In this document: piece by piece, positions 14,718-21,685 of the stretch
Layout of the letters: each line of letters begins with the position of its first letter
Numbering within the stretch: position 1 is the first letter of the stretch
Source of the DNA: an uncultured delta proteobacterium
GTDB lineage: Bacteria; Desulfobacterota; Syntrophia; Syntrophales; Smithellaceae
Assembly (NCBI GenBank): GCA_963753975.1
Contig: CAVWEH010000005.1
Span: 704,001 to 768,000 of the forward strand
DNA length: 64,000 nt
Direction of reading: 5' to 3'
Notes under the pieces: generated by a model
What the model saw: the letters and a program-made list of their open reading frames with translations, nothing else
What the model was told of the DNA's origin: nothing
Databases searched by the model: none
Translations under genes and position numbers: made by a program

Positions 14718-14816
14718 GTTTTACCGCTTCGGAGCAATTATATACGGCAATTGCCATAAAATCAACTATATGATAACGATGCGGAGAAATTAGATGTCAG
14801 GGAAAGCGGTTGTTAA

Positions 14817-15296
14817 ATGCAAAATCACTATAATTTCATGAAAATTGCGCTGGAGGAAGCCGAGATCGCCTACCGCGAGGGAGAAGTGCCCGTCGGTGCT
14901 GTACTCGTGAGCGAAGGCCGCGTTTTAGCGCGGGCGCATAATTCACCTATTACGAAAAACGATCCTTCGGCGCATGCGGAATTACTGGCCTTAAGGCAGG
15001 CAGGAGAGACTATCGGCAATTACCGTTTGGTAGGCGCGGAACTCTACGTCACACTGGAGCCCTGCGTCATGTGCGCGGGCGCAATTATTCAGGCCCGACT
15101 CTCCCGGGTAATTTTCGGAATGCGTGATCCTAAAAACGGTGCTGTCGTATCATTGTATAAAATTTTAACCGATGAGCGGCTGAATCATCAGGTAGAGATA
15201 ACGGAAGGTATTTTGCAGGAAGAATGCGGGGAACTTTTGAGTAGATTTTTCAGCCAAAAGAGGATAACATCCCGCGCGCTTCGGGCAGATAATTAA
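14817..15296 (+). CDS. tadA: tRNA adenosine(34) deaminase
   Basis: EVPVGAV, AHAE, TLEPCVMCAGA. Confidence 0.95.
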   Translation: MQNHYNFMKIALEEAEIAYREGEVPVGAVLVSEGRVLARAHNSPITKNDPSAHAELLALRQAGETIGNYRLVGAELYVTLEPCVMCAGAIIQARLSRVIFGMRDPKNGAVVSLYKILTDERLNHQVEITEGILQEECGELLSRFFSQKRITSRALRADN

Positions 15297-15298
15297 GT

Positions 15299-15376
15299 GG
15301 AGAGATACCGAAGTGGTCGTAGCGGGATCGACTCGCCCGGCATGCGCCGGGCGTCCGGCGAATGTCGGACGAAATC
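15299..15376 (+). pseudogene. 5'-half copy of tRNA-Ser(CGA), anticodon loop interrupted by a 34-bp palindrome doublet (15336-15369)
   Basis: Matches the start of the tRNA at 15650 with one mismatch up to GACTCG, then insert, then CGAAATC. Confidence 0.9.
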
Positions 15377-15392
15377 TACAATAATTGATATT

Positions 15393-15647
15393 ATGTATTA
15401 CGTTTACATACTACAAAGTGAACGGGATAAAGAATTTTATGTTGGAAGGACTAGTGATCTTAAAAGAAGATATTCGGAACATCAGGCAGGCCGTGTAGAA
15501 TCGACAAGACACAGGTTGCCCATGAAGTTGTTATGTTACGAGGCTTATAGCACGAAAGAAGAATCAGCCAGGCGGGAAGAATATCTAAAAACGAGTGATG
15601 GAAGAAAAGATATCAGGAAACGAATTATAGAAAGCCTGATTAAATAG
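15393..15647 (+). CDS. Stand-alone GIY-YIG nuclease, 84 aa
   Basis: YVYIL...FYVGRTSDLKRRYSEH...ESARREEYLK, i.e. GIY/YIG-like motifs with conserved Arg and Glu. Confidence 0.92.
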   Translation: MYYVYILQSERDKEFYVGRTSDLKRRYSEHQAGRVESTRHRLPMKLLCYEAYSTKEESARREEYLKTSDGRKDIRKRIIESLIK

Positions 15648-15649
15648 AC

Positions 15650-15743
15650 GGAGAGATACCGAAGTGGTCGTAACGGGATCGACTCGAAATCGATTTGGGG
15701 GCCACAAGCTCTCACGGGGGTTCGAATCCCCCTCTCTCCGCCA
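15650..15743 (+). tRNA. tRNA-Ser(CGA)
   Basis: Anticodon arm ATCGA-CTCGAAA-TCGAT, long variable arm, GGTTCGAATCC, GCCA end. Confidence 0.95.
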
Positions 15744-15802
15744 GAAATAGATACGGAGATGTAATATGTTACGTCTCCATAGTTAAAAATATTGTAATGA
15801 CC

Positions 15803-15896
15803 GGAGAGATGTCCGAGCGGCTTAAGGAGCACGACTGGAAATCGTGTGTATGCCCACAAAGGTGTACCGCGGGTTCAAATCCCGCTCTCTCCGCCA
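15803..15896 (+). tRNA. tRNA-Ser(GGA)
   Basis: Anticodon arm CACGA-CTGGAAA-TCGTG, long variable arm, GGTTCAAATCC, GCCA end. Confidence 0.95.
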
Positions 15897-15938
15897 TTTA
15901 TTACTGTAGATAGATAGTAAGGAAGCGTTCATAATGAT

Positions 15939-16020
15939 CGGGTTCACCCGGCACGTGTGACCTTTAGGTTATACGCCGGGTAGTCCGGCGAATGCCGGAC
16001 AAATCCCGCTCTCTCCGCCA
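15939..16020 (+). pseudogene. 3'-end copy of tRNA-Ser(GGA), T-loop interrupted by a 53-bp palindrome doublet (15947-15999)
   Basis: CGGGTTCA[insert]CAAATCCCGCTCTCTCCGCCA is identical to the tRNA 3' end once the insert and duplicated CA are removed. Confidence 0.9.
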
Positions 16021-16065
16021 GAAAACAAAAGCGCAATTGCTTAGAATATAATATGGGTAAAACAT

Positions 16066-16809
16066 ATGATTCTTATGCCTATTCCCGCCATTGATTTTGA
16101 TCCCAGTGAAACAAGTATTCCCTGGAAAGCATTGAATTCTAATAATATCGACATAACTTTTGCAACTCCATCGGGACAGCCGGGCAAAGCTGATCCCAGA
16201 ATGCTAACCGGGAAAGGCCTGGGGATTTGGAAAAAGATATTGATGGCCAACGCCGACGCATTAAATTGCTATTCCTTGATGACTAAAGATAAAAATTTCA
16301 ATAAGCCCATCAAATGGGATGAAATTAATCCGAAAGACTTTGCAGGAATAATTCTTCCTGGTGGTCATGCTCCCGGCATGAGAACATATCTGGAATCCAA
16401 AAAACTGCAAAATATCATTGTCAGGCTCTTTGAAGAAAATAAACCAGTAGGAGCAATATGTCACGGCGCTTTACTCGCTGCGCGAAGCATCAATCCCAAA
16501 ACAGGAAAATCCGTAATATATAATTATAAAACTACTTCACTTTTGAAATCACAAGAGTTGTCTGCGTATTATCTTACATTTCTTTGGCTGGGACGTTATT
16601 ACAGAACATATCCGGTAACGGTTGAAGATGAAGTTAAATCTTATCTAATTGATAAAAAAAATTTCTTCCGGGGTAATTCGGGGCTAATCAGAGATTCCAT
16701 TAACAACACAACGCATAGCTTTTCGGTACGCGACAGAAGCTATTTATCGGCGCGTTGGCCGGGCGATGCCTACCATTTTGCTTTTGAGTTTTTAAAATTA
16801 ATAAAATAG
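16066..16809 (+). CDS. DJ-1/PfpI (type 1 glutamine amidotransferase-like) protein
   Basis: DFDPSE, LPGGHAPG, GAICHG, SARWPGD. Confidence 0.88.
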   Translation: MILMPIPAIDFDPSETSIPWKALNSNNIDITFATPSGQPGKADPRMLTGKGLGIWKKILMANADALNCYSLMTKDKNFNKPIKWDEINPKDFAGIILPGGHAPGMRTYLESKKLQNIIVRLFEENKPVGAICHGALLAARSINPKTGKSVIYNYKTTSLLKSQELSAYYLTFLWLGRYYRTYPVTVEDEVKSYLIDKKNFFRGNSGLIRDSINNTTHSFSVRDRSYLSARWPGDAYHFAFEFLKLIK

Positions 16810-19206: not shown

Positions 19207-19334
19207 ATTATACCGGAAAAAGTCTCCAGCATGCGCCGGACTGCGCATATGCGGAGTTTATCCGGCGTATGCCGGATGCGCGTTTCATCCTCTGGTCTTG
19301 CGCGCCTTGCCTCTGGAGCTTTTTGCGGTATAAT
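19207..19334. repeat. Family-B 128-bp MITE-like repeat containing a 16-bp palindrome doublet
   Basis: Terminal IR ATTATACCG...CGGTATAAT; near-identical core at 21558-21685. Confidence 0.88.
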
Positions 19335-21557: not shown

Positions 21558-21685
21558 ATGACACGGCCAAAAGTCTCCGGCATACGCCGGACTGCGCATA
21601 TGCGGAGTTTATCCGGCGTATGCCGGATGCGCATTTCATCCTTCGACCTCGCGCGCCTTGCTTCTGGAACTTTTGGTGGAGTCAT
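21558..21685. repeat. Family-B 128-bp repeat
   Basis: Homologous to 19207-19334; terminal IR ATGAC...GTCAT. Confidence 0.88.

Follow-up and report, generated by a model that had tools for sequence, protein, structure and literature searches.

The closest relatives of the tRNA-nested unit described here are, in the literature searched (supplements and most subscription journals lay outside it), Ssn and SegB, and the unit itself is undescribed there. SsnA cuts single-stranded DNA (ssDNA) beside its own hairpin, and in the accessible text the authors liken the NTS-ssnA-NTS arrangement to an IS (Chenal et al. 2025, PMC11893778). As in our locus, Ssn (cd10448) is a small single-domain GIY-YIG gene beside its own GC-rich hairpin, which is also scattered genome-wide, and Ssn residues Y6, Y17 and E64 match Y5, Y16 and E62 here by spacing. 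SegB, a free-standing homing endonuclease of phage T4, is likewise a GIY-YIG gene among tRNA genes that recognises a T-loop motif (accessible text of PMC2330249). Stand-alone GIY-YIG domains are grouped with Slx1 in the accessible part of PMC1564403, which describes the family as mainly vertically inherited, and such minimal domains (UPF0213/Slx1-like proteins, 1zg2 and 1ywl) give the best sequence and fold matches to our nuclease. REP/RAYT systems share with it short GC-rich palindromes, inverted doublets, genome-wide copies and a dedicated neighbouring nuclease gene (PMC3733652, in the text available), and Islander islands share an intact tRNA with a displaced end fragment, the same configuration and subsites in the tRNA loops (PMC4383910, in the text available).

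The present locus departs from each of these systems. Compared with Ssn, the hairpin family is another one (0 NTS-like or loose SRM matches in 14800-16300), and the unit is tied to tRNA loops with tRNA regeneration, whereas the main text of PMC11893778 never mentions tRNA. SegB acts on duplex DNA and is passed from phage to phage together with the tRNAs that flank it, whereas the element here is chromosomal and Slx1-like, and the accessible text of PMC2330249 mentions no tRNA stub or hairpin insert. Unlike in REP/RAYT systems, the enzyme is GIY-YIG and not HUH, there is no PF01797 match in the genome, and insertion is inside tRNA loops with duplication of the tRNA; GIY-YIG is not mentioned in the accessible text of PMC3733652. 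In contrast to Islander islands, the unit has no integrase, measures 0.1-0.4 kb, which is below the 2-kb filter of Islander, carries mostly 5' fragments with a hairpin doublet in the crossover loop, and also uses the D-loop (compared with the accessible part of PMC4383910). It is a real, recurring variant of small-nuclease-plus-hairpin systems, tied to tRNA loops, and it probably works like Ssn/NTS.

Organization of the tRNA-Ser locus

The window, i.e. the whole stretch of 64,000 nucleotides that was analysed, contains the following features at this locus.

14817..15296, + strand: tadA, the host gene that marks the locus, outside the element (NCBIfam NF008113, 198 bits, cut-off 150)
15299..15335, + strand: 5' stub, nucleotides 1-37 of tRNA-Ser(CGA), 36/37 identical to 15650-15686
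15336..15371, + strand: hairpin doublet P1-CG-P2-CG in the anticodon loop (16-bp hairpin and its inverted partner)
15372..15392, + strand: tRNA continuation AAATC (5 nt) and AT-rich leader (16 nt), so that doublet and ATG are 21 nt apart
15393..15647, + strand: Slx1/UPF0213-like stand-alone GIY-YIG nuclease gene, 84 aa (Pfam PF01541, E 4.5e-16)
15650..15743, + strand: intact tRNA-Ser(CGA) (ARAGORN, Rfam), beginning 2 nt past the nuclease stop codon
15803..15896, + strand: intact tRNA-Ser(GGA) (ARAGORN, Rfam)
15897..15938, + strand: non-coding spacer of the gene-less 3' unit, 42 nt, unique in the genome
15939..16020, + strand: 3' stub, the T-arm, acceptor 3' strand and CCA of tRNA-Ser(GGA), with a doublet at 15947-15999 in the T-loop
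15953..15970, + strand: second, unrelated 18-nt hairpin repeat inside the P1 loop of the 3' stub (core motif multi-copy)

The unit consists of the hairpin doublet, 21 nt, the 84-aa GIY-YIG gene and the tRNA 5' copy, and its period, measured as the repeat spacing, is 351 bp; the original prediction of about 315 bp had omitted the 36-bp doublet. The same prediction had rightly placed a 5'-half copy of tRNA-Ser(CGA), ending in the anticodon arm, after tadA, the open reading frame with the intact tRNA 2 bases further on, and a duplicate of the tRNA-Ser(GGA) 3' end with a doublet in its T-loop, all of which were verified by reading the sequence. Behind the 5' stub, P1 (15336-15351) and P2 (15354-15369) are each followed by CG, after which AAATC extends to 15376. 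The two doublets were claimed to be the same; they do belong to one family, but they are not identical, the 3' doublet having the nested 18-nt hairpin in P1 and a TAG linker. Folded as ssDNA, 15299-15395 reaches a z of -2.97 and the 3' stub one of -3.27 against shuffles. Rfam finds tRNA at the locus, and no other family reaches threshold.

The 5' stub occupies the ancestral position of the tRNA 5' end and is preceded by the native upstream flank common to empty alleles such as L084, and the 3' stub holds the native downstream flank that is found at the intact tRNA of the same empty allele. For both stubs of the window the native outer flank has thus stayed with the stub and is absent from the intact tRNA, which suggests that the original tRNA gene was opened at the loop and that the missing half was rebuilt on the far side of the insert. 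As expected from the original prediction, the locus has no integrase: contig C5 gave no tyrosine integrase match, all five PF00589 matches of the genome being on other contigs.

Misassembly was rejected, since the duplications recur in independent assemblies: the full stub-doublet-gene-tRNA layout at Ser(CGA) is present in six genomes of the family (that of the window and five others) and in four metagenome contigs. Among the sequencing runs that were screened, the highest share of words in any run was 0.18. Contigs from four of them did not span the locus and contained pieces of the nuclease gene of relatives and, in X2, one empty-type joint. One 89-nt piece of the nuclease gene in the RNA run X17 is unfit as expression evidence. 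A 116-aa open reading frame running from 15297 through the stub was also rejected, as open-frame lengths vary from 85 to 116 aa among the 13 best matches.

The loops used are of the TCRAA type, as predicted, in D-, anticodon and T-loops alike. It had further been proposed that 2 bp are duplicated on insertion, in keeping with 2-nt overhangs of the I-TevI type. CG and CA do flank the window doublets, and at Ser(CGA) the loop CG stands on both sides of the doublet in all 11 parsed cases, but 17 of 31 T-loop doublets have the same dinucleotide on either side (duplication is absent in the other 14), and there is no duplication in any of the five Ser(TGA) stubs. A general 2-bp target duplication is rejected by these counts, and the scattered P copies also lack constant flanks; an overhang of the I-TevI type is not supported as the explanation. 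In 25 of the 31 T-loop doublets the linker reads as the left dinucleotide reverse-complemented (TAG in three others, AA in three), the second hairpin of a doublet is approximately the inverted first, and the hairpin stems co-vary. As far as can be read from the sequences, the junctions look more like hairpin-templated synthesis or stem selection than like the filling of a 2-nt stagger.

Palindromes of this kind recall REP hairpins, alongside which the name REPIN is used. The P hairpin occurs in 29 copies genome-wide, where 3.7 are expected from loop shares, and hairpins of other families nest in its loops. The predicted link between nuclease and palindromes is supported in that gene-less hairpin units track the nuclease (see below). 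The palindromes are not tRNA-specific. Some further observations concern the hairpins themselves. The 16-nt core motif of the 18-nt repeat is present 69 times in the genome at no more than one mismatch, and the 18-nt hairpin is inserted at the same position of P loops, between GC and AT, in the window's genome (G000) and in G118, G121 and G116. Larger hairpins that by eye look like SRM/NTS lie in P-hairpin loops at L082, L089, L098 and L146, forming Russian-doll repeats. Two further inverted pairs of P hairpins, the two hairpins of each pair about 20 nt apart, are located in the window away from tRNAs at about 19225-19276 and 21576-21627.

The nuclease and its homologues

The nuclease is a member of the GIY-YIG superfamily by its Pfam match and by its fold, which matches 1zg2 and Slx1 (sequence match to PDB 1zg2 E 5e-8; structure model with pLDDT 91.6). 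It is one small domain without accessory domains, and Y5, Y16, R25, H30 and E62, which we take to be the candidate catalytic Tyr/Tyr, Arg, His, Glu set of GIY-YIG enzymes, are invariant in nine aligned proteins. An I-TevI-like enzyme had been envisaged; sequence and fold are nearest to UPF0213 proteins and Slx1, and the match to the I-TevI catalytic domain is weak (E 0.18). Intact copies have a median dN/dS of 0.054 (range 0.02-0.11; 37 unsaturated of 78 pairs), values that indicate a gene under purifying selection. A phage origin was rejected, the best full-length viral match being about 40-44% identical among eight hits, none of which exceeds 55%.

The loose SRM pattern flagged one of 162 homologue loci, L133, an SRM-flanked proxy for Ssn to which the nuclease is 34% identical. 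The Ssn proxies form a separate long branch, and joining them with the clade of the nuclease was not rejected (p-AU 0.51).

In a search reaching beyond the host's family, homologues lie near tRNAs far more often than the controls. Among the best 80 of at least 186 loci in species genomes, a tRNA or tmRNA lies within 300 bp of 48, in all 48 cases with one on the same strand, compared with 10 of 131 offset windows and, in the element's own genome, 60 of 5000 windows placed at random. In the same best 80, direct repeats across the gene (score at least 14) were found at 27 of 79 loci and inverted repeats at 11 of 79, each compared with 0 of 132 controls. The association with tRNAs and flanking repeats, proposed earlier as a check on homologues, is therefore strong.

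Enzyme and hairpin go together by clade. In a tree of 162 distinct proteins the P hairpin stands within 110 bp upstream of 20 of the 21 genes of the nuclease's own clade (support 95 in FastTree and 74/90 in a careful tree on a subset), and the other 141 proteins yielded three loose matches. Other nuclease clades carry, by eye, hairpins of their own; in the clade of L321, L332 and L351, for example, doublets with 7-bp stems lie in tRNA-Arg loops. Within the P-hairpin clade one geometry recurs: the doublet is 12-26 nt before the ATG in 19 of 19 loci measured, and in 17 of 19 no more than 0-4 nt separate the stop codon from the tRNA or the next stub that follows (L291 was measured to its second stub). 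The targets, by contrast, vary, comprising the anticodon loops of Ser(CGA) and Ser(TGA), the T-loops of Ser(TGA), Ser(CGA), Ser(GCT)-type and Tyr tRNAs (L293, L295, L297, L298 and L006) and the D-loop of Ser(CGA) (L300). Clade units were found in two phyla, one of them through a Falkowbacteria record with a gene 60% identical and three tandem 3' units. Stubs are not always fresh copies, as those of L295 and L298 do not match the tRNA that follows them but represent another Tyr allele and another Ser isoacceptor, respectively.

Other small GIY-YIG genes were noted in passing. L012, L034 and L062 are tandem repeats of a tRNA fragment and a small GIY-YIG gene, and distant homologues (L031, L063, L013, L018, L038, L070 and L075) lie at other structured RNA genes, namely tmRNA (ARAGORN) and, by eye, RNase P RNA-like and rRNA-like genes. 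In the window's genome, a second small GIY-YIG gene (G000:C1:309217-309438, L137) is 46% identical, with a C-terminus that is apparently truncated; the genes of its clade (with L124, L127, L129, L130 and L136) lie between short inverted ends, CCCGTTAGA ... TCTAACGGG, in an IS-like layout away from tRNAs. A further one, at C5:49248, forms a long separate branch, and no tRNA or hairpin context was noted for it. At L128, L131 and L138, GIY-YIG domains are located in frame within type I restriction HsdR genes (assigned by Pfam for L128 and L138) and are bracketed by inverted repeats; the accessible text of PMC1564403 mentions one GIY-YIG insertion in HsdR and does not mention flanking repeats.

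Filled, empty and gene-less alleles in the host's family

Empty alleles, in which tadA directly precedes tRNA-Ser(CGA), had been proposed as a check and were found in most relatives (DNA search of 61 genomes, with the loci read). A protein match at E 1e-8 or better exists in 25 of 116 family genomes, and the close nuclease group (at least 60% identity) stands immediately before tRNA-Ser(CGA) in ten genomes and before tRNA-Ser(TGA) in five; G118 has the nuclease at both and G122 a remnant of it. On the tadA tree, 18 of 91 genomes bear some trace at Ser(CGA), including a stub that stops at a contig end (G025) and a weak trace (G007), which corresponds to 16 state changes. Counted as nuclease 3' ends, which take in intact genes as well as several mere remnants of 50-110 nt, the gene precedes 10 of 89 Ser(CGA), 10 of 42 Ser(TGA), 0 of 76 Ser(GGA) and 0 of 39 Ser(GCT) genes, the 42 being the intact gene rows scored from part of 85 genomes matching at TGA loci. 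By these sequence traces the nuclease gene is patchy and often decayed. Four g5 copies at Ser(CGA) have neither stub nor doublet, and at least three of the four look broken or partial.

All nuclease copies of the family form one clade (support 100/100), and one origin per genus was not rejected by the AU test (p-AU 0.37 for genus g1 and 0.44 for g5). Horizontal transfer within g1, hinted at by 90% identity to a g2 copy against 79-85% within g1, is thus unsupported (AU p 0.37). The sole grouping rejected, that of g2 CGA with g2 TGA copies (AU p 0.003), reflects two loci. Two pairs are discordant with tadA in opposite directions, G061/G066 with a synonymous difference of 0.72 vs 0.18 (Fisher p 5e-11) and L290/L291 with 0.33 vs 0.59 (Fisher p 0.002); they fit replacement or transfer, and host recombination alone could also explain them. 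One old gain followed by many losses fits much of the pattern, given the single clade and the genus monophyly that was not rejected.

Gene-less 3' units were confirmed in 23 of the 116 family genomes; the pattern had matched 33, of which the inspected hits in nine were unrelated sequence, and G034 was dropped by motif, uninspected. Of the 14 genomes whose clade gene, whether intact or broken, is close to full length, 12 have such 3' units, against 11 of 102 others (p 1.5e-8, which overstates the co-occurrence, as related genomes are not independent); the latter divide into 4 of 13 genomes in which remnants or just a stub are left and 7 of 89 without a nuclease trace in the loci examined. Their spacers measure 30-38 nt in 26 of 33 parsed units, and a hairpin-free 3' stub was not seen by eye among 311 (redundant) tRNA-Ser 3' ends parsed in family loci. 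A weak promoter-like match at 15907-15935 (9/12) ends 4 nt before the 3' stub; a promoter in this spacer was set aside as within chance, with five promoter-like sites against 2.6 +/- 1.6 expected.

Three 5' units (L085, L210 and L291) have a non-coding spacer of 47-49 nt in place of the gene, that of L291 standing in tandem behind a gene-bearing unit. The three spacers share homology with one another (0 of 1000 shuffles), which leaves deletion unsupported as the origin of the three; L098, G101, G105 and G120, in turn, look by eye like deletions. Two loci stand apart. L090 (G015) has a chimeric tRNA in which the 5' part of Ser(CGA) is fused with the greater part of Ser(GGA), apparently the outcome of a deletion between the two tRNA genes or of misassembly. 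At L261 (G020) the intact tRNA-Ser(GGA) gene is followed, 1.2 kb downstream, by a near full-length copy that has a doublet in its T-loop, and between the two are a nucleotidyltransferase gene and a HepT-like gene that is split.

Proposed mechanism and alternative explanations

What does this unit do in the genome? Sequence comparison establishes the architecture, the filled and empty alleles, the pairing of enzyme and hairpin by clade, the several targets, purifying selection and repeated decay, and on the same material mobility of the unit is likely; the mobile-looking unit of nuclease and tRNA 5' half at a tRNA loop, as first proposed, is supported. Since tRNA-loop units recur in many bacteria without an integrase, they are probably spread by a route not yet described. 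We incline, with caution, to the explanation that they are minimal selfish hairpin-nuclease elements, in which an Ssn-like nuclease would act on its own hairpins in ssDNA and host repair would regenerate the tRNA. This explanation draws on the tRNA association, the flanking repeats, the cognate hairpin pairing, the variety of targets and the recurring geometry, on purifying selection, turnover, discordance with tadA, the co-occurrence of 3' units (action in trans) and the absence of a Y1 transposase, and on the Ssn precedent (PMC11893778, in its accessible text). Counting against it are the single family clade with one origin per genus not rejected, host recombination as a sufficient account of the discordant pairs, the 3' units in 7 of 89 genomes without a nuclease trace in the loci examined, the clade support of only 74/90 in the careful tree, and the g5 copies that have neither stub nor doublet. 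As to the Y1 transposase, there were 0 PF01797 matches in the window's genome (95% complete), the control being positive in six of 14 genomes. A retro-mechanism was rejected: one reverse transcriptase ORF exists, on another contig, and no link was seen. The reverse transcriptase ORF at G000:C2:429437-429970 (L374) is a 292-aa open frame downstream of a short ORF.

The autonomous unit would comprise the hairpin doublet, the short leader, the GIY-YIG gene and the tRNA 5' copy, and in non-autonomous units, 5' or 3' of the tRNA, about 30-50 nt of non-coding DNA would replace the gene. Like Ssn, the enzyme may recognise its own hairpin in ssDNA and nick a few bases outside it. To our knowledge a hydrolytic GIY-YIG nuclease cannot itself join DNA, and insertion would therefore need host steps, which are guesses: fold-back synthesis, template switching or recombination could put the doublet and its cargo in a TCRAA tRNA loop, while the displaced tRNA half would be recopied, so that the host keeps a working tRNA. 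The unit may disappear again when stub and tRNA recombine or through deletion, and may be re-acquired between relatives. A bolder version is offered tentatively, as a possibility: active insertion, by a hydrolytic nuclease of 80 residues and its cognate hairpin doublet, into whichever TCRAA loop a tRNA gene offers when folded as a single strand, with the tRNA half recopied exactly to the mature 5' or CCA end and with gene-less 5' and 3' units and nested hairpins mobilised in trans, would define a recombinase-free class of minimal mobile elements. Every clade of the nuclease would then stand for one pair of enzyme and hairpin within a large family of sequence-specific ssDNA nucleases.

Rather unlikely, in our view, is a passive accumulation, in which tRNAs are duplicated locally, the spare copies serve as safe sites for a REP-like hairpin, and an old, mostly vertical hairpin-processing nuclease uses the tRNA operon only for its expression. 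On the one hand, the excess of P copies genome-wide, the nesting of other hairpin families in P loops, the single family clade with genus monophyly not rejected and strong purifying selection, and the near full-length tRNA copy with its doublet 1.2 kb from the source in G020 are all compatible with such a history. On the other hand, it leaves unaccounted for that no hairpin-free 3' stub was seen among the parsed tRNA-Ser ends, that the same geometry occurs at different tRNAs, loops and phyla, that most genomes lack the gene and many have decayed pieces of it, and that spacer length is so tight.

It is quite improbable that host tyrosine integrases, acting in trans, move the units as miniature genomic islands whose cargo is the nuclease and the hairpins, even though 5' fragments lie upstream and 3' fragments downstream, as the island rule demands, with anticodon-loop and T-loop subsites (accessible text of PMC4383910), the five integrase-family matches are present on other contigs of the genome, and the 1.2-kb unit of G020 carries the nucleotidyltransferase and HepT-like genes. 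One nuclease clade uses different tRNAs and also the D-loop, which is absent from the three subsites given in the accessible part of PMC4383910; 5' fragments occur in 159 of 3919 islands there, yet they are the rule for gene-bearing units here; and the doublet sits exactly in the would-be crossover site.

Very improbable is a role of the stubs as functional RNAs (guide or decoy, as in the original prediction, or regulator) that are produced along with the tRNA operon and either serve the nuclease or act against it: stubs and tRNAs share a strand, hairpin stems co-vary, and the 3' stub keeps its CCA end with the weak promoter-like match just before it, but such sites are no more frequent than chance allows, stub length varies from D-loop to T-loop, stems erode, Rfam has no family besides tRNA at threshold, and SsnA does not interact with RNA (accessible text of PMC11893778). 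The least probable is homing of the SegB type, the mechanism of the original prediction, in which the endonuclease would cut the tRNA-gene loops of empty alleles in double-stranded DNA and leave 2-nt 3' overhangs, for which one can cite SegB, a GIY-YIG enzyme in a tRNA cluster whose site has a T-stem-loop motif and whose ends are mostly 2-nt 3' (PMC2330249, accessible text), and the CG or CA flanks and matching ends described above, and against which stand the single 84-aa domain without a separate DNA-binding region and nearest to UPF0213/Slx1, the intact target with the same loop 2 nt from the gene, unprotected, which duplex cutting would presumably hit too, the doublets without a duplication, and the lack of any relative above 55% identity among the viral hits.

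For annotation, stubs of the kind described here can be miscalled as tRNAs (ARAGORN called one, at L293), and several contigs of the family end or have gaps at these repeats. Returning to the selfish hairpin-nuclease element, an old question, namely what spreads short palindromic repeats where there is no Y1 transposase, is now testable, because each enzyme comes with a predicted substrate 12-26 nt upstream, and clade-specific pairs of enzyme and hairpin would add members other than Ssn to the nucleases that act on ssDNA in a sequence-specific way. Should the unit move itself, it would, at 351 bp and with neither transposase nor integrase, be among the smallest autonomous mobile elements, and a widespread but overlooked class of broken tRNA copies, together with short hairpin repeats, would be explained in anaerobes and in bacteria of candidate phyla.
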